DNA of 64,000 nt from Terriglobia bacterium. GTDB lineage: Bacteria > Acidobacteriota > Terriglobia > 20CM-2-55-15. The stretch is from positions 64,001-128,000 of the forward strand of contig CBDCLE010000026.1 in assembly GCA_965218585.1 (NCBI GenBank), read 5' to 3'. The notes beneath the pieces were generated by a model that did no database searches, had not been told where the DNA came from, and saw only the letters and a program-made list of their open reading frames with translations. Shown in pieces: positions 4,721 to 19,204 of this stretch (position 1 is the stretch's first letter; the number at the start of each line of letters is the position of its first letter). The translations under genes and the position numbers were made by a program.

Positions 4721-5620
4721 CTACGGCAGACCGCTGCGAACGACTTCTCGGATCGTGGCAATGCGGAGGGGATACGTCCCGATGACTTTCACCGTTGGCG
4801 TTCCCTGTTTCAACTGAGCGATCGCTTCCTTGACCGCTCGACTCTCCATGGTGCCGATGAAATCCACATGATAGACCGATTCGGAATGCGATCCACGAAC
4901 GGGACGCGACAGCACGTTCGTCAGGGGAATTCCGCATTCAACAAACGGGGCGAGCACACCCGACTCTCGCCGCGCCAAATGAGGCACCTGAAAGCATATG
5001 CTCGTCTTCAACGAATCGCTTTGGGGCTTCGCGGCTCGAGGATTGTCAGGCGCGGACAGGAGCAAAAACCGGGTGTAGTTTTCCGGGTGGTCCTGAATGC
5101 CTGACCTCAGAATCTCCCCACCGTAGACCTCCGCACTCCGGGCACTTCCGATCGCACCGGTGTGGGGCGTTTTTTCCCGGACGACGAGTTCAACGGCACC
5201 GGCGGTATCGAAAGCAGGCACAGGTTCCATCTTCAGATTGGTTCGAAGTGATCCCGCGCACTGGGCCAACGCGACGGGGTGAGAGAGTACCCGGTAAACG
5301 TCTTCGATACGTGTCCCTTTGGGAACGATCAGACAGTGCGAGATCGTCTGGACGGTCTCGTCGATGATGACGAGGTCGTTCTCGGCGAGCAGATCGTATG
5401 TTTCGTCGATCGGTCCGGCAAGCGTGTTCTCGACCGGAATGACGGCGTAAGGAGCCTGGCCCCCCTCGACGCTGTCGAACACTTCCTGAAGCGTCCGCAA
5501 CCCCAGGAGTCGGGATTCTTTAGGTACGAAATCGAAAGCGGCATCCTCGCTGAACGCACCCGGCTGTCCCTGGTATACGACGTCGTATTCGGATGTGCTT
5601 GTCGCTTCAGATATTGGCAT
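4721..5620 (-). CDS. pheA: Prephenate dehydratase (monofunctional, divergent ACT domain)
   Basis: YQGQPGAFSE, PVENT, SHPVALAQC and catalytic NYTRF; start MPISE at 5620 overlaps aroF end. Confidence 0.9.
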   Translation of the reverse strand: MPISEATSTSEYDVVYQGQPGAFSEDAAFDFVPKESRLLGLRTLQEVFDSVEGGQAPYAVIPVENTLAGPIDETYDLLAENDLVIIDETVQTISHCLIVPKGTRIEDVYRVLSHPVALAQCAGSLRTNLKMEPVPAFDTAGAVELVVREKTPHTGAIGSARSAEVYGGEILRSGIQDHPENYTRFLLLSAPDNPRAAKPQSDSLKTSICFQVPHLARRESGVLAPFVECGIPLTNVLSRPVRGSHSESVYHVDFIGTMESRAVKEAIAQLKQGTPTVKVIGTYPLRIATIREVVRSGLP

Positions 5621-6788
5621 GTGCAGCAGCTGCCTTTGCGAGGGTCTGTCTTCCCTCTTCGCGCGTCCTCCTAATAATATCTCGAAAAACCTCTTCGACG
5701 GTCTCGTCCGGCAAATCGGCAACGCCTGCCCTCTGTCCGATGAGCCGAAGAATGACCCTGTCCAGGTTTCGGGTCCGGTTCCACCGAGCTCCGACGCTTC
5801 GTTTTTGGGAGGCCAGAACCAGAGCCAGAGATTCCATCATCCGTTCAAAGTCATCCAGAGTCAGAGACTGGGCTCCATCGCATAAGGCTGATTCCGGTTC
5901 CGGATGGACTTCAACGATCAGACCCGCTACGCCGGCGGCAGCGGCAGCCTTGGACAGGGGTTCGACAAGATTCCGATGTCCGGTTGCATGGCTTGGATCC
6001 ACAAATACGGGCAGGTGTGTGCGTTCTTTCAGCAGGACGGCAGATCCCAAATCCAGTGTGTTTCGTGTGGCCGTTTCGAAAGTGCGTATTCCCCTCTCGC
6101 AGAGAATGATGTTCAGGTTTCCCTGAAGCGCGATGTACTCGGCAGCCAGGAGCCACTCTTCTACGGTTGCCGACAGGCCGCGCTTCAAGAGCACGGGCTT
6201 GGCCGCCTTCCCCGCTGCTTCGAGCAGACTGAAGTTCTGCATGTTGCGTGCACCGATCTGAAGAACGTCGGCATGCTCAGCGACCAGGGGCACGTCTTCG
6301 GTGTTGAGCACCTCGGTAACAACCGCCAAACCAAGCGCTCGACCGGCTCGGGCCAGCAGCTCCAACCCCTTCTTTTCCAGTCCTCTGAAGGAGTACGGCG
6401 AAGTCCGGGGTTTAAACGCTCCGCCGCGAAGAATGCGGGCGCCGGCAGTGGCCACAGCACCTGCGGTGGCCATGACCTGTGCTTCGCTTTCAACGGCACA
6501 CGGCCCAGCCGCGACGACGAATTCGGAACCGCCGATTTCGATATCGCCGACACGGACTCGCGTACCTTCGGGACGAAGCGACCGATGGACAAGTTTGTAT
6601 GGAGTGTCGATCTTCTCCACCCGGGCGACGCCCGGCAGGGAACCGAAACGTCCGGGATCGTTGTTCTTGGCTGTGGAAACGACGATCGTATTGTCGATGA
6701 CCTGTGCCCTCTGAGTGTCAGGGTCCAGGACCGCCTGAACCCCTTCGATATCTGCCGGACTTGCGTCGGCCTGCATTCGAACTAACAT
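5607..6788 (-). CDS. aroF: DAHP synthase (type I-beta) with N-terminal regulatory domain and C-terminal truncated chorismate mutase-like tail
   Basis: AGPCAVES, GGAFKPRTSPYSF, QIGARNMQN, LLKRG, CERGIRTF, DPSH motifs; RBS AAGGAGG. Confidence 0.93.
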   Translation of the reverse strand: MLVRMQADASPADIEGVQAVLDPDTQRAQVIDNTIVVSTAKNNDPGRFGSLPGVARVEKIDTPYKLVHRSLRPEGTRVRVGDIEIGGSEFVVAAGPCAVESEAQVMATAGAVATAGARILRGGAFKPRTSPYSFRGLEKKGLELLARAGRALGLAVVTEVLNTEDVPLVAEHADVLQIGARNMQNFSLLEAAGKAAKPVLLKRGLSATVEEWLLAAEYIALQGNLNIILCERGIRTFETATRNTLDLGSAVLLKERTHLPVFVDPSHATGHRNLVEPLSKAAAAAGVAGLIVEVHPEPESALCDGAQSLTLDDFERMMESLALVLASQKRSVGARWNRTRNLDRVILRLIGQRAGVADLPDETVEEVFRDIIRRTREEGRQTLAKAAAAHANI

Positions 6789-6803
6789 TGTGAAACCTCC
6801 TTA

Positions 6804-6850
6804 AACGAAAAAAGGCCCGTTCCCCGTTGGTTCCGGAGAGCGGGCCTTTC
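6804..6850 (-). terminator. Attenuator intrinsic terminator upstream of aroF
   Basis: Minus strand GAAAGGCCCGCTCTCC-GGAACCAAC-GGGGAACGGGCCTTTTTT: GC-rich hairpin followed by a U-tract, just before the aroF RBS. Confidence 0.85.
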
Positions 6851-6870
6851 GGCTCTAAATGGTATCGGTA

Positions 6871-6978
6871 TTACGCCGTTACCCACCCCCCAGGGGACCA
6901 AAACCAAAAATAGCCCTCATACGAATAGAGAGATCCCGCAGCTGCGGAGCTATTCAGAGTTGTGGGTACGCAGTTCAT
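6871..6978 (-). CDS. Aromatic amino acid attenuator leader peptide (35 aa)
   Basis: Manual translation MNCVPTTLNSSAAAGSLYSYEGYFWFWSPGGWVTA*; 3 Tyr, 2 Phe and 3 Trp clustered; followed by terminator. Confidence 0.85.
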   Translation of the reverse strand: MNCVPTTLNSSAAAGSLYSYEGYFWFWSPGGWVTA

Positions 6979-6996
6979 TTCTTCCCTAAAGAATTG

Positions 6997-7025
6997 AGTA
7001 TGCGGATCGGACCACAGTGTGTCAA
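6997..7025 (-). promoter_or_regulatory. Sigma70 promoter of the aro leader/aroF-pheA operon
   Basis: TTGACA (7025-7020), 17-nt spacer, CATACT (7002-6997). Confidence 0.7.
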
Positions 7026-7038
7026 CAAGTTAAGAAAT

Positions 7039-7115
7039 GGGGTCAGAGCCCTATTTCCCTATTTAATAACGGAAATAGATGTAGGGGGAAAATGGGGAAA
7101 TAGGGCTCTGACCCC
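7039..7115. repeat. REP-like palindrome with 21-bp perfect arms
   Basis: GGGGTCAGAGCCCTATTTCCC (7039-7059) ... GGGAAATAGGGCTCTGACCCC (7095-7115), immediately after the ilvA stop. Confidence 0.85.
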
Positions 7116-8390
7116 TTAAACCAGATAGCGGAGGAGGTCGGGACGGTCGTTCAAGTATTCTCCGAAGAAACCAAGTTCTTTCATTCGGCTGATGAGGGGT
7201 TCGAGGTCTTCCTTGTTTCTCAGCTCTATGCCGACAACAGCAGGGCCCCTCTCCCGGTCGGTCTTCTTGGAATACGCGAAGTGCGTGATGTCGTCGCCTG
7301 GCCCAAGGACGTCGACGACAAACTGACGGAGCGCTCCGGCACGTTGAGGAAAACGCACTATGAAGTAATGCTTCACGCCCTCGTAGATCAGCGCACGCTC
7401 CCGGATCTCTTCGATTCGACGAAAGTCGTTATTGCCACCACTGACCAGACAGGCCACCGTCTTCCCTTTCACCTGGTCCCGGAAGTCTTCCAGTGCGGAA
7501 ATAGCCAAGGCCCCGGCGGGTTCGACGATGATGCCATGATCGTTATAGAGCCTGAGGATCGTGGCGCACAGACGTCCTTCCGGAACAGTCACGACCTTAT
7601 CGAGGACATCGCGGCAGATCTGGAAGGTCAACTCGCCCACACGCTGCACGGCCGCACCATCGGTGAAAGCGTCAATTGTTTCGAGCGTCACCGGATGACC
7701 AGCCTGAAACGCTTCCATCATCGATGGAGCGCCTTCGGGTTGTACTCCGATGATTTCGGTTTCGGGAGATATCGCCTTGACCCAACTTCCGACGCCGGAA
7801 GCCAGACCCCCGCCGCCAACGGGCAAAAACATAATGTCGATCGTGTCACTGGCGTCATCGAGCATCTCGATACCGAGCGTGCCCTGGCCTTCAATCACAA
7901 CCGGATCATCGAAAGGATGGACATAGATGGATCCGTCGGCAGCGGTTCGACCGACGGCTTCGGCTTCGGCGTCGTCAAAAACATCGCCCACCAGTTCAAT
8001 GTCCACCAGCGATCCGCCGATCGCGCGCACACGTTCGATCTTCTGACTCGGCGTCGTCAAGGGCATGTAGATAGTCGCGTGGATTCCCAGCTTACTGGCA
8101 GCGTAGGCGACGCCCTGGGCATGGTTACCCGCACTTGCACATGAAACTCCCTTCCGGAGTTCCTCGTCCGAATAGCTGCGGATCTTGTTGTAGGCGCCTC
8201 GAATCTTGTAGGACCGGACAACCTGCAGATCTTCCCGCTTGAGCAGGATGTTGGCCTCGTAATCTTCCGAGAGGTGATCGTCGCGCTCCATCGGCGTCCG
8301 AACGGCGACGTTTTTTAAACGGCTCGCAGCCCTCCCGATGGCGTCCGTCGCCGGACGCCATGTCAGTTCGGGAGTTTCCTGCCGTGTCAC
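7116..8390 (-). CDS. ilvA: Threonine ammonia-lyase, biosynthetic short form
   Basis: KREDLQVVRSYKIRGA PLP lysine motif, SAGNHAQG, single C-terminal ACT-like domain (FPQRAGAL). Confidence 0.95.
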   Translation of the reverse strand: MTRQETPELTWRPATDAIGRAASRLKNVAVRTPMERDDHLSEDYEANILLKREDLQVVRSYKIRGAYNKIRSYSDEELRKGVSCASAGNHAQGVAYAASKLGIHATIYMPLTTPSQKIERVRAIGGSLVDIELVGDVFDDAEAEAVGRTAADGSIYVHPFDDPVVIEGQGTLGIEMLDDASDTIDIMFLPVGGGGLASGVGSWVKAISPETEIIGVQPEGAPSMMEAFQAGHPVTLETIDAFTDGAAVQRVGELTFQICRDVLDKVVTVPEGRLCATILRLYNDHGIIVEPAGALAISALEDFRDQVKGKTVACLVSGGNNDFRRIEEIRERALIYEGVKHYFIVRFPQRAGALRQFVVDVLGPGDDITHFAYSKKTDRERGPAVVGIELRNKEDLEPLISRMKELGFFGEYLNDRPDLLRYLV

Positions 8391-9496
8391 TTGGCTACTT
8401 TTGCTTCCTTTGCGCTCGCCGCTCCGGTTGTTTCCTTTACCGGACGATCGGTCTTGGATTCGGGTCGCAACTGCCGCACCTGCTTCCCGGTACGCCAGAT
8501 CTCTTCACCGCCCAACTCGTCGAGTTCCGCCTCGAGACGGTCCCGGTAATCGTCCCTACCACAGGATTCGATGACGATTCCCGCTTCCTTTCCTGAGCGG
8601 ACACTTTCGTAGAGCTCTTCGTACACCGGAGTCACGGCTTCACGGAACTTATGCCGCCAGTCCAGAGCGCCTCTCTGAGCCGTCGTGGAACAGTTGGCAT
8701 ACATCCAGTCCATTCCGTTCTCAGCTACCAGCGGCATCAAGCTCTGGGTCAGTTCTTCAACGGTCTCGTTGAAAGCCTCCGAAGGCGAATGACCGTTCTT
8801 TCGGAGTACGTTGAACTGTGCTTCGAAAACGCCGGCAATCGCGCCCATCAGAACGCCGCGCTCACCGGTCAAATCCGAATAGACTTCCTTCTGGAAGTCG
8901 GTCTCGAACAGGTAACCGGAACCGACGCCGATACCGAGCGACATGACGCGCTCGGTGGCGCGCCCGGTCGCATCTTGAAAGATCGCGTAGCTCGAGTTCA
9001 ATCCCTTCCCTGCAACAAAGAGCCGCCGTAGGGACGTTCCGGAACCCTTGGGAGCAATCAACACGACATCGACGTCATCGGGTGGGATGACACCGGTCTG
9101 ATCCTTGAACGTAATCGCAAAACCATGAGAAAAATAGAGGCACTTGCCGGCCGTCAGATGCTGCTTGACCTTCTCCCACTGAGCGATCTGGCCGGCGTCG
9201 GAGAGCAGATACTGGACGATCGTTCCGCGTTTGGCCGCCTCTTCAATCTCAAAAAGATTCTCGCCTTCGACCCATCCGTCGCCAACGGCCTTGTCCCAAG
9301 AGCGTGAGCCTTTCCGCTGTCCCACGGTAACGTTGAAACCATTGTCCTTCAGGTTGAGCGCCTGTCCCGGCCCCTGTACGCCATAACCGAGGACCGCAAT
9401 CGTTTCATCCTTCATGCAGTCTCGGGCCTTATCGAGGGGCCATTCTTCGCGCGTTGTCACATTCTCCTCGACATCGCCAAAACGTATTTTCGCCAT
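8387..9496 (-). CDS. ilvC: Ketol-acid reductoisomerase
   Basis: GYGVQGPGQALNL, FSHGF, APKG, SDLTGERG, CSTTAQRGA motifs. Confidence 0.95.
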   Translation of the reverse strand: MAKIRFGDVEENVTTREEWPLDKARDCMKDETIAVLGYGVQGPGQALNLKDNGFNVTVGQRKGSRSWDKAVGDGWVEGENLFEIEEAAKRGTIVQYLLSDAGQIAQWEKVKQHLTAGKCLYFSHGFAITFKDQTGVIPPDDVDVVLIAPKGSGTSLRRLFVAGKGLNSSYAIFQDATGRATERVMSLGIGVGSGYLFETDFQKEVYSDLTGERGVLMGAIAGVFEAQFNVLRKNGHSPSEAFNETVEELTQSLMPLVAENGMDWMYANCSTTAQRGALDWRHKFREAVTPVYEELYESVRSGKEAGIVIESCGRDDYRDRLEAELDELGGEEIWRTGKQVRQLRPESKTDRPVKETTGAASAKEAKVAK

Positions 9497-9541
9497 GCTG
9501 TAGATAACCTCCGCTTTGGGGATGGAGCGACCGCCCCCAAT

Positions 9542-10048
9542 TTATTTTCCGTCGATCTGGGCAAGGACGGGCTTGGTAACCATTACTCTTCCCGACCTGA
9601 CAAACTCCATTACGCCAAAAGGCTCTAAACGACCAAACAGTTCTTCAATTTCATCCTGCGACCCGGTTTTTTCAACTACGACGTAACCCGCACCCGCGAC
9701 AAGGATCCGTGCGCGAGACGTCCTTACAATCTTTGAGAGCGAATTCCTAACGGACGCTGCATCGAGCGAAAGTTTAAACAACGCCACTTCACGGTCGTGG
9801 GTTTCGACGTCGCGATGGTAGCTCACCTCGATCACGCCAACTAACGCGCCAATCTGCTTGACGGCACGCCGTATCCGATCCGGGGCCGCGCGGACAGCAA
9901 TACTGTGCTGATAAACATTTGACGCTTCGCCATTCGTACAGGTGAAGCTTTCGATCTTTATGCGGTGCCGTCCCAAACAGGCCGCCAGGCGCAGAAGAGA
10001 ACTCGAGTCGTTCTCCGTACGCGCCGAAACTGTGAATTGCGGATCCAA
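9542..10048 (-). CDS. ilvN: Acetolactate synthase small (regulatory) subunit, divergent
   Basis: ACT fold, REVALFKL and EFVRSGRV motifs; between ilvB and ilvC; probable TTG start at 10048 after AAGAGG. Confidence 0.85.
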   Translation of the reverse strand: MDPQFTVSARTENDSSSLLRLAACLGRHRIKIESFTCTNGEASNVYQHSIAVRAAPDRIRRAVKQIGALVGVIEVSYHRDVETHDREVALFKLSLDAASVRNSLSKIVRTSRARILVAGAGYVVVEKTGSQDEIEELFGRLEPFGVMEFVRSGRVMVTKPVLAQIDGK

Positions 10049-10085
10049 TGATTGCCTCTTAGTGGCCTCCAGGAGGCCAGCCAGC

Positions 10086-11852
10086 CTATTCCAGGCGGAT
10101 CTCCGAGCAGGGTGAACCTGCAGGGACCATCGGGAATATGTTGTCTTCCCGTTCCACCACCACTTCCAGAAGGAAAGACGATTCCGATTGAAGCATCGCG
10201 TCAATCGCGTCACCAAGTTCTTCTCTTTGAACCACCTGTTTTCCTTCCATACCGTATGCCGCGGCGATTCCCACGAAATCCGGATTCATCAATTCGGTCG
10301 CCGAGTAACGCCGCGAAAAGAACAACTGTTGCCACTGACGCACCATTCCCAGGTACTCGTTGTTCAGAATCATCATCTTGACCGGAATCTTCGCCTGGAA
10401 GATCGTACCCAACTCCTGGAGGGTCATCTGAAAACCACCGTCGCCGATGATGGCGACGATGGGTCGATCCTGGCGGGCAACAGCTGCACCAATGGCCGCC
10501 GGCAGGGCAAAACCCATCGTCCCCAGACCACCGGAAGTTATCGTGCCACTACCTTCGTCGAACTTGTAATAGCGGGCTGCAGACATCTGATGTTGCCCGA
10601 CATCGGTCACAATGATGGCTTTGCCTTCGCTGCGTTCGGATAACTGATGAACGACCTCCGCCATGCGGAGTCCAGAAGAATCCGGATGAATGTCCTTCCG
10701 AATAACCCGGTTGATCTCGATCTGATCGCAAGCTCGAAACTCCGCAAGCCACTCGTGGTGGGACCGAGACCCGACAGCTTCGGCAAGGGCACCCAGGGCT
10801 TCGGCGGCGTCGGCGACGATCGCCACGTCTGTCTTGACGTTCTTGTCGATCTCCGAGGGATCGATATCAATGTGGATGATCTTTGCCTGCTTGGCGTACT
10901 TGGAAAGATCACCGGTCACACGGTCATCGAATCGCATCCCGACCGCGATCAGGACATCGCATTCATTGGTCTTGATGTTCGGCCCGTAGTTGCCGTGCAT
11001 ACCCAACATGCCGGTGTGCAGCCGATGGCGACTCGGCAGTGCGGACAACCCGAGCAACGTACACGCGAACGGAAGATCGGCTTTCTCAACCAAAGCTTGA
11101 AGTTCGGCCTGGGCTTTGGACAGCAGGACACCCTGCCCCACCAGAACAAACGGTTTTCTTGACCGATCGATCAACCGCGCACCGGCCTCAACACTCGCCG
11201 GGTCCAGCGTGGGCCGGGGCCTGTATCCTCTGACTTCGGACACAGTGGCCGGATGATAGTCGAAGGTCTCTATCTGAGCGTCTTTTGTTATATCTATCAA
11301 GACCGGTCCGGGACGTCCCGAGCGCGCTATGTACAATGCCTTGGCCACCACCTCGGGAACCTCTTCGGCCCGCGTGATTTGGTAGTTCCACTTCGTCACT
11401 GGGGCGCTGACCGAAATGATGTCGGTTTCCTGAAACGCGTCCGAACCCAGCATCTTCGAAGGCACCTGTCCAGTGATACATACCACTGGTGTGCTGTCGA
11501 TTTTGGCGTCCGCAATACCGGTGATCAGGTTCGTCGCGCCGGGCCCGGATGTGGCAATGCAAACGCCCGGCCTTCCCGAGGCGCGCGCGTAACCCTGAGC
11601 GGCATGAACCGATCCCTGTTCGTGGCGGACAAGGATATGCCGGATTTGATGGTCGTATTCAAACAGGGCGTCGTATACCGGCATGATCGCGCCGCCGGGG
11701 TACCCAAAAATTGTTCGGACACCTTCCTGCAACAACGAAAGCACAACCGCCTCCGCTCCCGAAACCGTCTGCGGCGGTTGGACTAAGGCTTCCGGTGTTC
11801 GGAGGTTGCCGGTTTCCTCTTCCCTGCTTACCGTTGTTTTGCTCTGTGACAT
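10086..11852 (-). CDS. ilvB: Acetolactate synthase large subunit
   Basis: FGYPGGAIMP, RHEQG, TSGPGATN and TPP-binding GDGGFQM...NN motifs. Confidence 0.95.
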   Translation of the reverse strand: MSQSKTTVSREEETGNLRTPEALVQPPQTVSGAEAVVLSLLQEGVRTIFGYPGGAIMPVYDALFEYDHQIRHILVRHEQGSVHAAQGYARASGRPGVCIATSGPGATNLITGIADAKIDSTPVVCITGQVPSKMLGSDAFQETDIISVSAPVTKWNYQITRAEEVPEVVAKALYIARSGRPGPVLIDITKDAQIETFDYHPATVSEVRGYRPRPTLDPASVEAGARLIDRSRKPFVLVGQGVLLSKAQAELQALVEKADLPFACTLLGLSALPSRHRLHTGMLGMHGNYGPNIKTNECDVLIAVGMRFDDRVTGDLSKYAKQAKIIHIDIDPSEIDKNVKTDVAIVADAAEALGALAEAVGSRSHHEWLAEFRACDQIEINRVIRKDIHPDSSGLRMAEVVHQLSERSEGKAIIVTDVGQHQMSAARYYKFDEGSGTITSGGLGTMGFALPAAIGAAVARQDRPIVAIIGDGGFQMTLQELGTIFQAKIPVKMMILNNEYLGMVRQWQQLFFSRRYSATELMNPDFVGIAAAYGMEGKQVVQREELGDAIDAMLQSESSFLLEVVVEREDNIFPMVPAGSPCSEIRLE

Positions 11853-11853
11853 C

Positions 11854-13539
11854 TCACGCTCCGTCTGTCGTACATCCTTCTGAGGCGGGTGATACTGCCT
11901 TGGCATACTTGTAGAGGGCACCCGAAGTTACACGTAGTGGCGGCGCCGTCCACCCTGCCCGGCGCGCGGCCACTTCATCCGATGGCAATTCCACTTCGAT
12001 CGTGTTTCGAACGGCGTCAATCCGTATGCGGTCGCCGTCTCTGATGAGCGCAATGAGACCGCCATCCTGGGCTTCCGGAGTGATATGGCCAACGACAAAA
12101 CCGCGTGTTCCACCTGAAAAACGACCGTCTGTAATCAACGCGACGTCATTTCCCAATCCGGCACCCATGATCATCGAAGTAGGGGTCAGCATTTCCGGCA
12201 TCCCGGGTCCACCCCGTGGACCTTCGTAGCGAATCACGACAACGTCGCCGGCCTTCACCGCTCCCCGAGCGATGCTCGCATTCGCATCTACCTCGCTGTC
12301 AAAAACACGTGCGGGTCCTTCGAAGATCTCACCTTCCTTACCGGTGATCTTTGCGACCGCACTCTGCTCGGCAAGGTTTCCGTACAGGATTCTCAAGTGA
12401 CCGCGCGCGCTGATCGGGTCGCCCGGGTCATGCACGATCTTCTGGCCACTCTCGAGAGACGGTAAATCGGCTACGTTCTCAGCAAGAGTCGATCCGGTAA
12501 CGGTCATGCAGTCCCCATCGAGCAGTCCATGCTCTAAAAGCATCTTGATGACCGCGGGCGTTCCACCGATGTTATGGAGGTCCTCCATTACGTAAGACCC
12601 GCTCGGGCGAAAGTCTGCAAGGAGCGGGACCCGGCCGCTGATTTCCTGAAAATCGTCGACCGTAAGATCGAGCTGAAGGGTTCGGGCAATGGCCAGCAGG
12701 TGCAGCACAACGTTCGTCGATCCACCCAGAACGATTGCCAGCGTGATGGCGTTCTCAAAGGACTTGCGCGTCAGAATGTCCCTCGGCCGCAGGTTCTTTT
12801 CCAGAAGCGAGCGGAGCGACGCGCCGGCGTTGAGGCATTCAGCAACCTTCTCACTGCTTTCAGCGGGATTGGAGGAACTGTAAGGCAGGCTCATACCCAT
12901 GACTTCGATAGCACTCGCCATCGTGTTGGCCGTAAACATGCCGCCGCAGGCACCCGCACCCGGACAGCTCTTCTGGACGACTTCCTGGAACTTTTCGAGG
13001 GTGATCCTTCCGGCCAGGTGCTGGCCCAGAGCCTCGAACGACGAGATCACATCCAGCTTGTCGCCGTTCAGGTGTCCGGGAGCAATCGTCCCTCCGTAGA
13101 TCATGAGTGCCGGACGGTTGAGTCGCGCCATGGCGATCATCGCGCCCGGCATGTTCTTGTCACACCCCATGATCGTGATCAGGCCGTCGTAGTGCTGGGC
13201 CGAAGCGATCGTCTCGATGGAATCGGCAATCAGGTCGCGCGACGGCAGCGAATAGCGCATCCCGAGTGTCCCCATAGAGATGCCGTCGCTGACACCGATG
13301 GTGTTGGAAACAAAACCCACCAGATCCGATGCCTCGGTGCCTGCCTTGGCCTCCGCCGCCAGGCCGTTCAAGTGCATGTTGCAGGGGTTGCCCTCATATC
13401 CCGTGCTGATGATGCCCACCTGAGCCAGTTCGAGGTCGGACTCAGACAAACCGGCACCAAACAACATCGCGCGGGCCGCCGGTCGGTCATACGACTGGGT
13501 CAGCTCCTTGCTGATCCGGTTCAATTCCCTTGTTTCCAT
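11854..13539 (-). CDS. ilvD: Dihydroxy-acid dehydratase
   Basis: [45 protein letters not shown] motifs. Confidence 0.95.
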
Positions 13540-13569
13540 GCTTTCCTTCATTCGTTTCAATTTCAGAGC

Positions 13570-13612
13570 AAAAAAAATCCCCTCGCCGCGTGTCGCGGGA
13601 GGGGCGGTGGAT
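13570..13612 (-). terminator. Attenuator intrinsic terminator upstream of ilvD
   Basis: Minus strand CCCCTCCCGCG-ACA-CGCGGCGAGGGG followed by A and T8. Confidence 0.85.
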
Positions 13613-13628
13613 TCGCTTTTTACAGCGA

Positions 13629-13709
13629 CTAACCCGGCCCCCCTCGCGTAAGGGAGCTAATCCCTACACCTACGATTACGATGGGGGTCCCACAGTTGGT
13701 CGGTCGCAT
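13629..13709 (-). CDS. Branched-chain amino acid attenuator leader peptide (26 aa)
   Basis: Manual translation [26 protein letters not shown]; Ile/Val run; the 3' leader segment CGCGAGGGGGG can pair with the terminator 5' arm. Confidence 0.82.
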
Positions 13710-13715
13710 GACAAA

Positions 13716-13745
13716 AACGTAACAGCAATGTCTGCGGCCTGTCAA
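13716..13745 (-). promoter_or_regulatory. Sigma70 promoter of the ilv leader/operon
   Basis: TTGACA (13745-13740), 18-nt spacer with TG extension, TACGTT (13721-13716); predicted start falls on the leader ATG. Confidence 0.6.
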
Positions 13746-13778: not shown

Positions 13779-14852
13779 TCAACTCGCTTTAGAGGCTGCT
13801 AACGATCCCACGACGAACTCACCCATCTCAGATGTTGAAACCGACTTCCCTCCGTCAGTGGCAAGGTCTGCCGTCCGGTAACCCTCCCGCAGCGCACGGC
13901 CCACACCCTCACGGATCGCCTCAGCTTCCTCAGATAACTTGAAAGACAGCTCGAGCATCATGGCGACAGAAAGAATGGCTCCGGTCGGATTGGCAATGCC
14001 CTTCCCTGCAATGTCGGGCGCGGTTCCATGCACCGGTTCGTACAGTCCGATCGTTGCCCCGATGCTGGCCGAGGGCAGCATCCCGAGGCTTCCGGCCAGA
14101 ACCGACGCTTCGTCGCTCAGGATGTCTCCGAACATGTTGTTCGTCAGGATGACGTCGAACTGGCGCGGATTGGCGATGAGCTGCATCGCGCAGTTATCAA
14201 CCAGCATGTTGCTGAATTCGACGTCGGAATACTCGCGGGCGACGTCGGTTGCAACTCTCCGCCACAGAACGGAGGATTCCAGGACGTTCGATTTATCGAT
14301 GGAAACCACCTTCTTGCGGCGCTGTCGAGCTATCTCGAACGCCATCTTGGCAATCCTGCGGACCTCTTCTTCGGTGTACACCTCGGTGTTATGAGCGATC
14401 CCATGTTCAATGCCTCGAGGCAGTCCGAAATAAATGCCGCCCAACAACTCGCGCACCACCACCAAATCCACACCACGGATGTGTTCCGCCCGAAACGGAG
14501 ACCGATCGACAATCGCATCAGGAACGGCGACCGGGCGAATATTGGCATAGTTTCCGAGGAGTTTCCGAAGATCCAACAGACCTTTCGCAGCATCAGGACG
14601 ATTGGGATCCGTTGCAGGTGCGGGCAGGCCGACTGCTCCGAGGAGAACCGCGTCGACTCCAACGACGAGTTTCCGAGTCGCTTCCGGAAGCGGATCTCCA
14701 AAGGCGTCTATGGCGCCAGAGCCCATCGCGCCTTCGACAATCTCAAAGCGGTGACCATAAGCCTCTCCGATCGCTTCCAAAACGTGCCGCGCTTCGACTA
14801 AAACCTCTGGACCGATGCCGTCTCCCGGCAGAAACGCAATACGCCCTTCCAT
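13779..14852 (-). CDS. leuB: 3-isopropylmalate dehydrogenase
   Basis: [49 protein letters not shown] motifs. Confidence 0.95.
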
Positions 14853-14855
14853 TCG

Positions 14856-16385
14856 TTACTCTCCCGCCGCCTTGTCCATCCCGGTCCACAAGGCTTTGTT
14901 AATTGCATCCAGATAAGCCCGTGTCGCAGCGATGTTCAAATCGGTACTGGCCGCCCGACCGGCGATCGTCCTACCCTCGACGTCAACCTGCATGAAAACT
15001 TCCCCAACGGCTTCGCTACCTTCGGTGACAGATTTCGCCGAATACCCCAGAACCTTTCCCTTACAGCCGGTGATCTGATTGACCGCGCGAACGGTGGCAT
15101 CGACTGGGCCGTCCCCAGTGGCCGTATCCGTGTACATGGAACCGTCCTTCTCCAGACTCAGGGTTACGGTCGAGACCGCGTCGCTCTTGCCCACGATGTG
15201 GAAATGCTTCAGGGCAAACGCAGCCGGCACATTCGTGAGCCCATCGTTGATGATGACGATCAAGTCATCGTCGTAGATGGTCTTCTTACGGTCGGCCAGC
15301 TTGGTAAAGAGCATGTACGCCCGCGCCAGATCGGATTCGCTAAGCTGGTAGCCCAGTTCACGGTAACGGGCAGCGAGGCCGTGTCGGCCGGAGTGCTTTC
15401 CAAGAACAATCTGGTTCTGAGGCACACCCACCGAGTCCGGTGTCATGATTTCGTAGGTAAGCGTTTTTTTAAGGACGCCGTCCTGGTGAATGCCGGCCTC
15501 ATGTGCAAACGCATTCTTTCCGACAATGGCTTTGTTCGCCTGAACTTCCATTCCCGTCAGGCTCGAAAGAACCTGGCTCGTCCTGTAGATCTCCTGCGTG
15601 TTGACGCCGGTCTCCATGTCGAGCAAACTTCGATGGACCTCGATTGTCATCACGATCTCCTCGAGAGATGCGTTGCCGGCACGCTCGCCGATCCCGTTGA
15701 TTGCACACTCGACCTGACGGGCACCGTTCTGCACTCCGATAAGAGAGTTCGCCACAGCCAGACCCAGGTCGTTATGGCAATGTGTACTGATGGTGACGTC
15801 TTCGATTCCCTTGACCTTCGCGAGGCCCTTGATCAGCGCCCCGTATTCCGATGGCAGGCAATAGCCCACCGTATCGGGAATGTTGACAACTTTGGCACCG
15901 GCCTCGATCGCCGCTTCAACGACGGCATACAGGTATTCGGGATCGGAACGGCCGGCATCTTCTGCGGAAAACTCGACGTCGTCACAGAGAGAACACGCCA
16001 ACTCGACCGACTTCACGGCCATTTCCAAGGCCTCTTCACGCGTCTTGAGCAACTTGTGCTTTAGATGGATATCGCTCGTAGCAAGAAAGGTGTGAATTCG
16101 CGGCCGGGCGGCACCTTCAAGCGCCTCCCAGCACCGCCGGATGTCTCCTTCCGCCGCGCGCGCAAGACCGGCGATCGAGGCTTCCCGGATCTCACTGGCA
16201 ATACGTTTGACGGCCTCGAAATCTCCGTCCGATGCAATGGGAAAACCCGCCTCGATGACATCCACTCGCAAACGTTCCAGTTGGCGTGCGAGCCGGAGTT
16301 TGTCGTCAATATTCATGCTGAAACCGGGAGCCTGCTCCCCGTCTCTCAGCGTTGTGTCGAAAATCGCGATCCGATTCATGGCCAT
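14856..16385 (-). CDS. leuA: 2-isopropylmalate synthase
   Basis: FDTTLRDGEQ, HCHNDLG, GIGERAGN, HEAGIHQDG and C-terminal regulatory GDGPVDA. Confidence 0.95.
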   Translation of the reverse strand: MAMNRIAIFDTTLRDGEQAPGFSMNIDDKLRLARQLERLRVDVIEAGFPIASDGDFEAVKRIASEIREASIAGLARAAEGDIRRCWEALEGAARPRIHTFLATSDIHLKHKLLKTREEALEMAVKSVELACSLCDDVEFSAEDAGRSDPEYLYAVVEAAIEAGAKVVNIPDTVGYCLPSEYGALIKGLAKVKGIEDVTISTHCHNDLGLAVANSLIGVQNGARQVECAINGIGERAGNASLEEIVMTIEVHRSLLDMETGVNTQEIYRTSQVLSSLTGMEVQANKAIVGKNAFAHEAGIHQDGVLKKTLTYEIMTPDSVGVPQNQIVLGKHSGRHGLAARYRELGYQLSESDLARAYMLFTKLADRKKTIYDDDLIVIINDGLTNVPAAFALKHFHIVGKSDAVSTVTLSLEKDGSMYTDTATGDGPVDATVRAVNQITGCKGKVLGYSAKSVTEGSEAVGEVFMQVDVEGRTIAGRAASTDLNIAATRAYLDAINKALWTGMDKAAGE

Positions 16386-16475
16386 TCCCTAGACCCTCTG
16401 TTTCGGCTAACGAAAAGTTCATCGACGTCCAGCCTCTTCTGAGCCCTGAACCGTCGGTCCCCTAGGCCTCTTCCT

Positions 16476-17129
16476 TCAAGTCGCGGACGCCTTCTTCAAA
16501 TCCTGAACGCCCAAATCCTCGGCGCCAAGAACGCCGTGGATGAACAAATCCTGAAACTCTCGCACAACCTCATCGGGCTTGACCGAGCCCGACGGCTTGT
16601 ACCATTGGTAAGTCCAGTTCAGCATTCCAAGCAATGCCAGTGCGGCCACCTTGGGATTCGCCGCTCTGCAATTCGACTTCTCCATCACATCACTCACAAG
16701 GTCGGTGACGAGTTGGACATACTTCTTTTTCCGGCGGTTGATCTTGGTCTTATCCTGTCTCGACAGGCCCTGGCATTCGTGCAAAAGTCCGGTCACCGCC
16801 AACTTTCTCCCCTCCAGAATCAGCTTTAGATGCAGTTCGATCATCGTCTTCAAACGGCGCACGGGATCGGCCACCGATTCCAACGGCTTGACAACGTACG
16901 CCTCGGTCATGTCCATGCCGTAGTCGAGAATCGTAAAAAGCAGGCTCTCCTTGCTGGAGACGTGGTGATACAGGCCGGCCTTGGTGAGGCCGACCGCCTC
17001 GGCGATGTCTTTCATCGAGGTGTTGTCGTAACCCTGCCGATGAAACACCTCCGCCGCGATCTCGTATACTTTGTCCCGTGGCGCGGTTGACTTCTGTTTG
17101 ATCTTTGAAGTAGCGTTCCGATTTGCCAT
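16476..17129 (-). CDS. TetR-family regulator, AibR-like (acyl-CoA binding)
   Basis: HTH TSMKDIAEAVGLTKAGLYHH; YGMD, LHE, RKKKYV, LGMLNWTYQWYKP resemble Myxococcus AibR as I recall it. Confidence 0.85.
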   Translation of the reverse strand: MANRNATSKIKQKSTAPRDKVYEIAAEVFHRQGYDNTSMKDIAEAVGLTKAGLYHHVSSKESLLFTILDYGMDMTEAYVVKPLESVADPVRRLKTMIELHLKLILEGRKLAVTGLLHECQGLSRQDKTKINRRKKKYVQLVTDLVSDVMEKSNCRAANPKVAALALLGMLNWTYQWYKPSGSVKPDEVVREFQDLFIHGVLGAEDLGVQDLKKASAT

Positions 17130-17158
17130 AATCTACCTACCGATCGGTAGGTAGATTA
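17129..17158. promoter_or_regulatory. TetR operator, perfect 30-bp palindrome
   Basis: TAATCTACCTACCGATCGGTAGGTAGATTA is its own reverse complement; abuts the tetR start codon, between the divergent leu arms. Confidence 0.88.
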
Positions 17159-17182
17159 ACAAGAAGACACTCCAAAGTGCAA

Positions 17183-17188
17183 TATAAT
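17183..17188 (+). promoter_or_regulatory. -10 box of leuC (possible leaderless transcript)
   Basis: TATAAT with only 8 nt between it and the leuC ATG. Confidence 0.55.
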
Positions 17189-17196
17189 TAGGTGCT

Positions 17197-18615
17197 ATGA
17201 CAAACCCACCAGCCAGGACTCTATACGACAAAATATGGGACAGCCACGTTGTTGTGGAAGGTCGGGAGACGCCATCGATCCTCTATATCGATCTCCATTT
17301 GATTCACGAAGTTACATCTCCTCAAGCATTTGCGGGGATACGCCAGAGGGGTATAGGAGTCCGCCGGCCTGACCGAACCCTGGCCACGGCCGACCACGTT
17401 ACCCCGACCATCAGCACCGACATCGCCGACGCGGGTGAGCTGGCCGTCAAGCAGCTACGAAGCCTGGAAGACAGTTGCTCCGACTTCGGTGTGCGCCTCT
17501 ATACAATTGGCGACAGCCGGCGCGGCATAGTCCATGTGATCGGTCCCGAACTCGGATTGACCCAGCCCGGACTGACTCTGGTTTGCGGTGACAGCCACAC
17601 CTCGACACACGGTGCTTTCGGCACGCTGGCTTTCGGTATTGGAACGACCGAGGTGGAGCATGTTCTGGCATCTCAATGCCTGCTCGAACGCAAAGTGGGC
17701 AACTTCAAGGTGGATTTCCAGGGTCAGCTTTCTCCCGGCGTCACCAGCAAAGACATGATTCTCGCGTTGATCGCAAAGATCGGTATCGGAGGCGGGACCG
17801 GGCACGTCCTCGAATATACGGGCTCAGCCATCGAAGCTCTCACTATGGAAGCCCGGATGACGATCTGCAACATGTCCATCGAAGCCGGTGCGCGCGCTGG
17901 TTTGGTCGCCCCGGATGATACGACCTATCAGTACATGTCGGGTCGCGAGTTCGCTCCGAAGGGAGCCGACTGGGACCAGGCTCTGGAGGGATGGAAGCAG
18001 TTGCCCAGTGATGCGGACGCGCCATACGACAAGACGGTCACGATCGACGCTTCGACGTTGGATCCGTTCATCAGCTTTGGCACCAACCCGTCCATGTGTG
18101 CGCCAATCGGGGAACAGGTACCGGACCCGGCAGACGTGGACAACCCGGTAGAGCGGGATCAGCTTGCGGGGGCACTCAAATACATGGACCTGGAGGCCGG
18201 GACACCTTTGATCGGCCAGAAGGTGGACGTGGTCTTCATCGGCAGCTGCACGAACTCGAGAATCTCGGACATGCGGGATGCAGCAAGAATCCTCAAGGGC
18301 CGGAAAGTGAGCGAAGATGTCCGTGCGCTGATCGTTCCAGGATCGGAGCAGGTACGTGCCGAGGCCGAAGGCGAGGGTTTGGACAAGATCTTCACCGAAG
18401 CCGGTGCCGAATGGCGTCTGCCCGGTTGCAGCATGTGTCTGGCGATGAATGGGGATAACCTCGAACCGGGCCAGCGTTCAGTCAGTACAAGCAATCGGAA
18501 CTTCGAAGGCCGGCAGGGACAGGGGGGGCGGACCATGCTGGGTTCTCCGCTTACCGCGGCGGCGGCAGCCGTTGCCGGCAAGGTCGCAGACCCAAGAGAG
18601 TTCATTTCCAACTAA
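17197..18615 (+). CDS. leuC: 3-isopropylmalate dehydratase large subunit
   Basis: [49 protein letters not shown] motifs. Confidence 0.96.
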
Positions 18616-18628
18616 GAAGGTTCCAACG

Positions 18629-19204
18629 ATGAAGAAATTCGAAAAGGTAATCTCCCACGCCGTATGTCTTCCACTTGAAGACATCGACACGGACCAGATC
18701 ATTCCGGCCCGTTACCTGAGAACAACGGAGAAAACGGGACTGGGAGAGCATCTGTTCCATGACTGGCGATATACGGCCAACGGTCAGCCCAAGAAAGGCT
18801 TCGTGCTGAACGAGACGGGAGCAAAGGACGCCAGTTTACTGATTACCGGCAAGAACTTCGGCTGTGGAAGCTCCAGAGAGCATGCGGTCTGGGCCATCAT
18901 GGACCACGGCATCGAGGCCGTAATCGCACCGGAATTCGCAGACATCTTTCACAAGAATTCGCTCAAAAATGGCCTGCTACCGATCACCGTTGATCAGTCC
19001 ACGCTCGACGCTTGTCTGAAGGCAGCCGAAGCAGGCGCCAGCTTCACCGTAGACCTCGAGTCGAACACCGTCAGCGCCGATTCCCTTTCGTTCAGCTTCG
19101 AGGTCGATCCCTTCGCTCGCAACTGCCTGCTCGAGGGTATCGATGACCTGGAATTCATCCTGAAGCACGAGGACGAAATCGCCGCCTTCGAAGCCAACCA
19201 TTAA
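18629..19204 (+). CDS. leuD: 3-isopropylmalate dehydratase small subunit
   Basis: IDTDQIIPA, NFGCGSSREHA, FADIF motifs; start MKKFEK at 18629. Confidence 0.95.
   Translation: MKKFEKVISHAVCLPLEDIDTDQIIPARYLRTTEKTGLGEHLFHDWRYTANGQPKKGFVLNETGAKDASLLITGKNFGCGSSREHAVWAIMDHGIEAVIAPEFADIFHKNSLKNGLLPITVDQSTLDACLKAAEAGASFTVDLESNTVSADSLSFSFEVDPFARNCLLEGIDDLEFILKHEDEIAAFEANH

Follow-up and report, generated by a model that had tools for sequence, protein, structure and literature searches.

The genes of leucine biosynthesis (leu) are known to be controlled by leader-peptide attenuation and by T-boxes. A protein regulator has also been described in Streptomyces, where NdgR is an IclR-type leu regulator (PMC4340878), and in mycobacteria a TetR-type repressor, BkaR, controls a branched-chain keto-acid operon (PMC3920632). 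Among solved structures, the nearest relative of the regulator described here is AibR of Myxococcus xanthus, which has been determined in the apo form (5K7F), with isovaleryl-coenzyme A (isovaleryl-CoA; 5K7H), and with isovaleryl-CoA plus operator (5K7Z) (PMC5389471). That paper states, in agreement with the preliminary description of our locus, that AibR is a TetR protein with isovaleryl-CoA as its co-repressor. DNA binding by AibR requires that the protein be loaded with isovaleryl-CoA (Kd ~1 uM), and AibR also binds 3,3-dimethylacrylyl-CoA (PMC5389471). Here we analyzed a stretch of 64,000 nucleotides (the 64-kb window) from contig CBDCLE010000026.1 of a Terriglobia bacterium from soil, in which a gene for an AibR-like TetR-family regulator, referred to as tetR, is followed by leuA and leuB and diverges from leuC and leuD. 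This regulator is most likely an acyl-CoA-responsive autorepressor of the leu genes. The closest public records were from Acidobacteriota, class Terriglobia, and several of them were labelled Solibacteraceae.

Gene calls and a palindrome search agreed with the arrangement given in the preliminary description, in which tetR-leuA-leuB on the minus strand and leuC-leuD on the plus strand diverge from a 67-bp spacer (17130-17196) holding a perfect 30-bp palindrome (Table 1). The first base of the palindrome is the T of the tetR start codon, and 29 of its 30 bp lie within the spacer. It was the sole palindrome with zero spacer and arms of at least 8 nt in the window, and an arm of 15 was reached in none of 100 block shuffles, the largest shuffled arm being 13. 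The operator of AibR has been defined as ACCTACCG-2N-CGGTAGGT, and the fragment crystallised with AibR comprises nucleotides 2-17 of this operator with G9 changed to A (PMC5389471). We found that the 16-bp core of the window palindrome matched the crystallised fragment letter for letter, and the left-flanking CTAC was common to both as well, so that the resemblance to the AibR operator core, described earlier as a similarity, is an exact identity. The core also keeps A5, G8, T10 and G12, the positions of the AibR operator at which mutations were most harmful to binding (PMC5389471).

The exact core occurred only once in the genome (4.55 Mb, 95% complete), and the scan suggested for further copies thus returned a unique site. 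Core sites with two mismatches numbered 12, compared with 30 for a reversed control pattern. A relaxed consensus, CC[TG]ACCG-NN-CGGT[AC]GG, gave one further exact match, inside hisD, and 6 matches vs 5 for the control when one mismatch was allowed. Additional genomic operators were rejected, because the relaxed matches were at chance level against the controls and the single extra consensus match lay inside hisD. No second copy of the regulator was found in the genome at E<=1e-10. Because there is a single operator site and a single regulator copy, the regulator is predicted to be dedicated and local.

A perfect 30-nt palindrome would fold strongly if it were wholly transcribed, and we therefore considered that it might serve as an RNA or DNA hairpin, such as a terminator, a processing site or a repeat element, instead of a protein operator. 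However, it sits between diverging starts, lacks a T-run, is unique in the genome, and matches a biochemically defined operator base for base (PMC5389471). Moreover, the 20-bp operator variants of relatives are not perfect palindromes, and what these relatives conserve is the half-sites rather than the hairpin potential. A hairpin role is thus hardly credible, and we continue with the palindrome as the predicted operator. The 20-bp element of the relatives, CCTACCGATCGGTCGGTAGG, was present in many of them (L011, L016-L026, L092-L095, L101-L111 and L081) in a fixed orientation to tetR, and it reads as two overlapping 16-bp operators with a 4-bp offset. Unlike these relatives, the window has a simple 16-bp core within a longer perfect palindrome.

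The regulator protein matched the Pfam families TetR_N (PF00440, 53 bits) and TetR_C_24 (PF17932, 90.5 bits), both above the cut-offs, whereas no NCBIfam model named it, the best score being far below the cut-off. Its best match in PDB was AibR (5K7F/5K7H/5K7Z; E 1e-37, 133 bits), followed by 3VPR (104 bits), which bears out its earlier assignment as AibR-like. The alignment to 5K7F was ungapped over 169 residues, 64 of which were identical (~38%, midline count), and all five motifs previously listed as shared with AibR (TKAGLYHH, YGMD, LHE, RKKKYV and LGM..W.Y.W.KP) were visible in it. Residues were mapped through this ungapped alignment (chain index = AibR number + 3), and their conservation was counted over 119 close homologs (clade members). 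The two residues by which AibR reads bases, Lys47 and Tyr51 (PMC5389471), are kept in the window protein, together with five of the six backbone contacts (Ser35, Met36, Thr46, His53 and Lys57), and these seven DNA-contacting residues were kept in 118-119 of the 119 clade members. The sixth backbone contact, Arg14, is Pro in the window protein.

Comparison with relatives further placed the operator within a predicted promoter. In the orientation of tetR, relatives carried TTGAC[CT], a gap of 17-18 nt, and TAACCT running into the operator, and a regular expression for this layout matched 10 of 11 single-operon loci. This expression was strict and, over all loci, matched 18 of 49, because many loci have four extra bases before the core; the rest were judged by eye, by which the remaining leu-linked loci showed an equivalent layout. 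The palindrome is accordingly predicted to cover the -10 of the promoter driving tetR-leuA-leuB as well as the region where transcription starts, the standard position of a repressor, so that its occupancy would silence tetR, leuA and leuB. The 90-bp gap between tetR and leuA contained no promoter-like or terminator-like site. We consider it highly probable that the regulator represses tetR-leuAB via the palindrome. There is also no room for a leu leader peptide, as had been noted earlier: the palindrome and the promoter elements fill the spacer, and a search of the whole 64-kb window for known leader and riboswitch families gave 0 Rfam matches at gathering thresholds.

For the leuCD arm, the predicted promoters of tetR and leuC overlap back to back, since the candidate TATAAT of leuC abuts the -35 of tetR. 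Of the four genus-level relatives, L011, L092 and L093, but not L094, had a TATAAT at equal distance before leuC, and in these three no Shine-Dalgarno-like bases preceded leuC, which suggests that the leuCD mRNA may be leaderless. The promoter scan gave another leuC promoter, TTGAAG-16-CATAAT (17105-17132), which falls inside the coding region of tetR and has a -10 that relatives carry in degenerate form. We prefer the TATAAT at 17183-17188 as the likely leuC element, without deciding between the two. The earlier proposal that one operator controls both arms is thus well founded for tetR-leuAB and less so for leuCD, where the operator lies upstream of the likely promoter and its center is ~52 bp upstream of the likely leuC start, which is not a classical repressor position and speaks against joint control. 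On balance, we lean slightly towards leuCD being under the same operator.

Table 1 Features of the tetR-leu locus, in positions of the 64-kb window
Feature	Position	Strand	Details or basis
leuB, 3-isopropylmalate dehydrogenase	13779..14852	-	TIGR00169 at 441 bits
leuA, 2-isopropylmalate synthase, 509 aa, with allosteric LeuA_dimer domain	14856..16385	-	NF002086 at 742 bits
tetR, AibR-like TetR-family regulator of 217 aa, leading the minus-strand operon	16476..17129	-	Pfam TetR_N and TetR_C_24
Perfect 30-bp palindrome, predicted operator	17129..17158		arms of 15+15 nt, 100% complementary, no gap
16-bp operator core, CCTACCGATCGGTAGG	17136..17151		same sequence as the DNA in the AibR crystals
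TAATCT, predicted -10 for tetR-leuAB, overlapping an operator arm	17153..17158	-	conservation in relatives
TTGCAC, predicted -35 for tetR-leuAB, at a spacing of 17-18 nt to the -10	17177..17182	-	conservation only
Candidate -10 of leuC, TATAAT, 8 nt before the ATG, abutting the tetR -35	17183..17188	+	sequence and relatives
leuC, isopropylmalate dehydratase large subunit	17197..18615	+	family matches
leuD, isopropylmalate dehydratase small subunit, corrected start	18629..19204	+	family match
Hairpin (13579-13604) followed by eight U (13570-13577), between leuB and ilvD	13570..13604	-	-26.6 kcal/mol, z -4.6

The linkage of tetR to leu genes and the presence of the operator, which had been expected to hold in relatives, proved to be widely conserved. 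All 16 genome_contigs loci encoding a 59-87% identical protein had adjoining leu genes and an operator-like site upstream of the regulator. Within the same family, the ortholog was found in 20 of 34 genomes, and all 20 were leu-linked and carried the operator; 14 of these 20 loci are the same records as among the 16 genome_contigs loci. Beyond the family, tetR followed by leuA was observed, together with the operator, in four further acidobacterial families, namely f99 (4/4 genomes), f84 (two loci), f25 (one) and f7 (one). Two layouts occurred among the relatives, either divergent, as in the window, or a single operon tetR-leuA-leuB-leuC-leuD. TetR genes are often autoregulated and mobile, and the regulator might in principle control only itself or a distant target, its adjacency to leu being incidental. 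Against this, wherever a leu-linked locus extended as far as leuA, that gene followed tetR on the same strand at a distance of 6-392 bp, the linkage recurs in separate lineages, the tetR-leuA gap lacks promoter- or terminator-like sites, and the genome holds no other operator. Incidental adjacency is thus very improbable, and regulation of the adjoining leu genes is preferred.

The single-operon relatives differed in LeuA as well. Their LeuA was 377 aa long and lacked the LeuA_dimer domain in all four loci tested (L016, L021, L022 and L023), and LeuA_dimer was absent from anywhere in the genome in five of five single-operon genomes (G405, G410, G414, G424 and G433), with 14/14 controls positive. 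The usual leucine feedback domain therefore seems to be absent from the single-operon genomes.

The ligand-binding domain was then compared with that of AibR. The CoA and pantetheine contacts Lys131, Lys132 and Trp169, the pocket residue Tyr134 and the switch residues His114 and Tyr171 were kept in 119/119 clade members, and the CoA contact Lys175, present in the window protein, was kept in 115/119. In the hydrophobic pocket, Leu100, Val109 and Leu113 are kept, and Val101 to Ile and Ile112 to Leu are conservative changes; Leu168 is Asn in the window protein, a change that also occurs in aib-linked members (those linked to genes of the alternative isovaleryl-CoA route, see below). Because the CoA contacts are conserved and the pocket is mostly kept, an acyl-CoA is the likely ligand, with isovaleryl-CoA as the leading candidate. 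In other organisms, leu genes are governed by signals such as leucine, 2-ketoisocaproate or 2-isopropylmalate, and one of these non-CoA pathway metabolites might be the ligand here too, the more so as the residue gating the pocket differs from that of AibR. This possibility is improbable given that the holders of the phosphate, pantetheine and adenine groups are retained (Lys131, Lys132, Trp169 and Lys175, at the frequencies above), and acyl-CoA binding largely prevails both among the closest relatives of solved structure and in the Pfam family of the C-terminal domain. We consider an acyl-CoA ligand to be quite probable, whereas for isovaleryl-CoA specifically the evidence is evenly poised.

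To place the regulator within the phylum, we used an even sample of 401 genomes, 43 of which had a regulator match at E<=1e-30; 29 loci besides the window's own were fetched. Of these 29, 18 had an aib-linked neighbourhood, 4 a leu-linked one, 3 diverged from ilvC, and 4 showed none of aib, leu or ilvC. In three aib-linked loci that we followed (L119, L120 and L122), the regulator headed genes for 3-hydroxy-3-methylglutaryl-CoA (HMG-CoA) synthase, thiolase, a DUF35 protein, two or three CoA-transferase-like proteins per locus, and a Zn-dehydrogenase. The best PDB match of the HMG-CoA synthase was 6ESQ (E 9e-112), which we take to be the archaeal thiolase/synthase/DUF35 complex; the matches of the CoA-transferase-like genes included 5MZW (E 1.6e-18), presumably AibA, and the Zn-dehydrogenase best matched 5K1S (E 1e-115), presumably AibC. 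These genes look like a complete operon of the alternative isovaleryl-CoA (aib) route, which is introduced in the AibR paper (PMC5389471), behind an AibR-like regulator and operator in other acidobacterial families. Eight aib-linked loci carried the same TAACCT-operator cassette as the leu-linked loci, and all but one of the genomes with a match had a single member of the regulator family.

The two linkages were largely exclusive at the level of the HMG-CoA synthase. When the genome of the window (G000) was searched by tblastn (E<=1e-10, half coverage), the aib HMG-CoA synthase, thiolase, DUF35 protein and AibA/B all lacked homologs there. Likewise, 9 of the 10 other leu-linked genomes had no close homolog of this HMG-CoA synthase; the tenth had a homolog that was 33% identical. 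The lipids of Solibacter usitatus are dominated by iso-C15 fatty acids and ethers (PMC10087280). To treat isovaleryl-CoA as a leucine catabolite, as had been done, probably undersells it, since the dominant iso-C15 lipids of this phylum are built on it as primer (PMC10087280). The organism presumably needs isovaleryl-CoA as a primer for iso-branched lipids, and as no aib route is present in the genome, de novo synthesis of that primer would go through the leu pathway. The genome has two gene pairs for E1 alpha and beta of 2-oxoacid dehydrogenases, one of them beside a 3-hydroxyisobutyrate-dehydrogenase-like gene, and it is plausible that a branched-chain keto-acid dehydrogenase (BCKDH) is among them.

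In the mechanism that we propose, a dimer of the regulator would bind the 30-bp palindrome through the Lys/Tyr recognition helix of AibR, and occupancy would shut off the regulator as well as the enzymes that open and close the leucine branch (leuA and leuB); the leuCD arm would probably be affected too, less certainly. The 2-ketoisocaproate produced by the leu enzymes would be converted into isovaleryl-CoA by BCKDH, and isovaleryl-CoA in the AibR-type pocket would act as co-repressor, as in AibR, with the feedback loop holding the isovaleryl-CoA pool, and leucine with it, constant. The leu pathway would thus probably be throttled by isovaleryl-CoA rather than by leucine itself. Taken as a whole, this explanation, with an AibR-family repressor on the palindrome, isovaleryl-CoA as co-repressor and a feedback loop on leu, is in our view about equally likely to be right or wrong. 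More tentatively still, leu transcription in part of the Acidobacteriota may be governed by the size of the isovaleryl-CoA pool, by way of a portable AibR-type cassette and in the manner of a lipid-primer pathway. Elsewhere in the phylum, the same cassette would guard the aib route, and in lineages without LeuA_dimer the pathway would sense the thioester derivative of leucine rather than leucine through the usual allosteric domain. In all of this, the likeness of the sequences, the identity of the operator, its overlap with the promoter, and the conservation and distribution of the system are observed, whereas we infer binding, ligand, sign and physiological role.

Several observations weigh against the proposed mechanism. 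In AibR, Phe72 helps to line the isovaleryl pocket and acts as its gate in the apo form, and a network of Arg24, Lys107, Glu108 and Glu28 couples the ligand to DNA binding (PMC5389471). Phe72 is Thr in 116/119 clade members. The residues linking the ligand to the DNA-binding domain are replaced, with Arg24 changed to Glu, Glu28 to Arg, Lys107 to Leu, Arg16 to Asp or Asn, Glu74 to Ala or Ser, and Glu108 to Ala (Glu in 56/119 clade members). Lys172 is Gln in the window protein, though Gln is common in aib-linked members. The comparison with AibR that had been suggested therefore gave a divided result, in which the CoA contacts and the His/Tyr switch are invariant, whereas the gate is altered and the salt-bridge network is replaced. 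Given the change of Phe72 and the replaced coupling network, the sequence reveals neither which ligand is bound nor in which direction it acts, and the co-repressor mode may not carry over from AibR; whether the ligand promotes or releases DNA binding is accordingly a toss-up. As to the supply of isovaleryl-CoA, both E1 alpha genes scored below the equivalog cut-offs for pyruvate dehydrogenase (PDH), and no family model separates BCKDH from PDH.

The phylogeny also counts among these points. In a quick IQ-TREE run with support from the Shimodaira-Hasegawa-like approximate likelihood ratio test only, the window protein fell in a 27-row clade of leu-linked regulators only (support 99), and an enclosing 42-row clade (support 97) added leu-linked members from f84 as well as ilvC-linked and prephenate-dehydratase-linked members. 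P0141, which stood in for AibR in the tree (it matches 5K7F, E 1.6e-70), grouped with the aib-linked acidobacterial regulators. The window protein is thus outside the AibR/aib-linked clade and in a sister clade, in which regulators beside ilvC and prephenate dehydratase are found too. The expectation that it would cluster with AibR did not hold in this quick tree, and by its predicted placement the protein is AibR-like, not an AibR ortholog. By contrast, the leu-linked regulators L073 and L078 nested inside the aib-linked group (support 99). A single clade of all 31 leu-linked regulators, a group defined from synteny ahead of the tree, was rejected (approximately unbiased test, p 7e-9), which together with the nested L073 and L078 points to more than one gain, or loss, of the leu linkage. 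The recruitment of an AibR-type sensor to leu, as first proposed, is thus supported by comparison, in that AibR-family regulators head either aib or leu operons and the linkage is of multiple origin; the window protein comes from the sister clade, and its ligand and sign are those we infer above. Among the sister-clade regulators, L065, L074 and L084, from one family, diverge from ilvC, and L116-L118, from another family, lie directly upstream of prephenate dehydratase; no 16-bp operator site was found in L116-L118 at up to 2 mismatches.

The altered gate and the network replaced throughout the clade, as well as the ilvC- and prephenate-dehydratase-linked members, would also fit the same repressor and operator with a different ligand logic, in which the ligand releases the DNA as in a classical TetR, or in which another acyl-CoA or another co-repressor is read. 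Most TetR proteins are released by their ligand, and AibR itself also accepts 3,3-dimethylacrylyl-CoA (PMC5389471). Candidates for a releasing ligand are isobutyryl-CoA, which would report a surplus of 2-ketoisovalerate, 3-methylcrotonyl-CoA and acetyl-CoA. However, the rest of the hydrophobic pocket is kept and His114/Tyr171 are invariant, and an acyl-CoA inducer that would signal a need for leucine is hard to name. Moreover, L073 and L078, which head leu operons as well, carry the full, unaltered AibR signature, Phe72, Lys107 and Glu108 being kept in them as in the aib-linked regulators, and the distribution of the family, before either aib or leu genes, fits a shared signal. We regard this alternative, including its releasing candidates, as rather unlikely, though well short of negligible, and keep isovaleryl-CoA as the proposed co-repressor.

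Several features of the surrounding DNA were observed beside the main locus. The listed open reading frame (ORF) of leuD begins at 18449; this start was rejected in favor of 18629, because the ORF overlaps leuC and the family match only begins at its residue 61. Beyond leuB, the minus strand carries a same-strand array (4721-13560) of ilvD, ilvB, ilvN, ilvC, ilvA and the genes for 3-deoxy-D-arabino-heptulosonate 7-phosphate (DAHP) synthase and prephenate dehydratase. The hairpin between leuB and ilvD was matched in stability by 0/200 shuffles and is likely to be the end of the tetR-leuAB transcript, or else an ilvD attenuator. With respect to the attenuators ascribed earlier to the neighbouring ilv and aro operons, this terminator-like structure was the one feature observed. 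The leuB-ilvD interval is ~200 bp (13570-13745, minus strand), with the hairpin and U-run just ahead of the ilvD start, and a G-rich stretch upstream of the hairpin could pair with its C-rich arm. In relatives, the spacing between leuB and ilvD matches was only ~13-60 bp. A second LeuA-like gene lies outside the window (C26:334780-336108), is 28% identical over 465 residues, and is possibly a citramalate or homocitrate synthase.

A full-text literature search, with most subscription journals outside its coverage, turned up neither a TetR or AibR-type regulator described for leuA-leuD nor aib operons described in Acidobacteriota, in line with the earlier remark that AibR-type control is not a described mode of leu regulation. 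It would thus be a mode of leu control new to the searched literature, in which a TetR protein with an acyl-CoA pocket takes the place of attenuation, T-boxes and amino-acid-binding regulators. We consider the observed arrangement to be real, conserved and beyond chance, with its key biochemical steps as predicted above. Since an operator, its recognition residues and a template of solved structure are already available, the hypothesis is well defined and could be tested at little cost. A single cassette of regulator and operator that precedes two different routes to one metabolite would be a clean example of regulatory rewiring, and it bears on how the abundant soil Acidobacteriota balance protein synthesis against the supply of iso-branched lipids. 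If true, amino-acid synthesis would be coupled to how iso-C15 lipids are supplied, and these have been proposed as building blocks of the branched glycerol dialkyl glycerol tetraether (brGDGT) membrane lipids that are used as climate proxies. The regulator and its site could also serve as a biosensor for short-branched acyl-CoAs.

Compared with known systems, the window regulator is closest to M. xanthus AibR, with which it shares the TetR fold and a TetR_C_24-type ligand domain (~38% identity, ungapped), the base-reading Lys/Tyr pair, the backbone contacts, the operator core, the CoA contacts and the His/Tyr switch, as well as the position of the regulator as first gene of its operon with the operator in its own promoter. 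Unlike AibR, it belongs to a sister clade, has Thr at gate position 72 and a replaced salt-bridge network between ligand and DNA, and heads leuA-leuB, perhaps with leuCD also, rather than the aib operon, in a genome without aib genes. The acidobacterial aib operons come from the same phylum and resemble the leu locus in the position of the regulator and in the cassette, which consists of TTGnnn, a spacer, and TAACCT running into CCTACCGATCGGTCGGTAG. They differ in the genes downstream (HMG-CoA synthase, thiolase, DUF35, AibA/B-like and AibC-like) and in keeping Phe72, Lys107 and Glu108. Like BkaR (PMC3920632), the window regulator is a local TetR-family repressor tied to branched-chain metabolism. 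With attenuation, T-boxes and NdgR (PMC4340878 for the last), the locus would have in common the feedback control of leuA, leuB, leuC and leuD expression. Those systems read charged tRNA, leucine or other signals by means of RNA or of other regulator families, whereas here no leader fits the spacer and control would be exerted by a TetR protein with a predicted acyl-CoA pocket.

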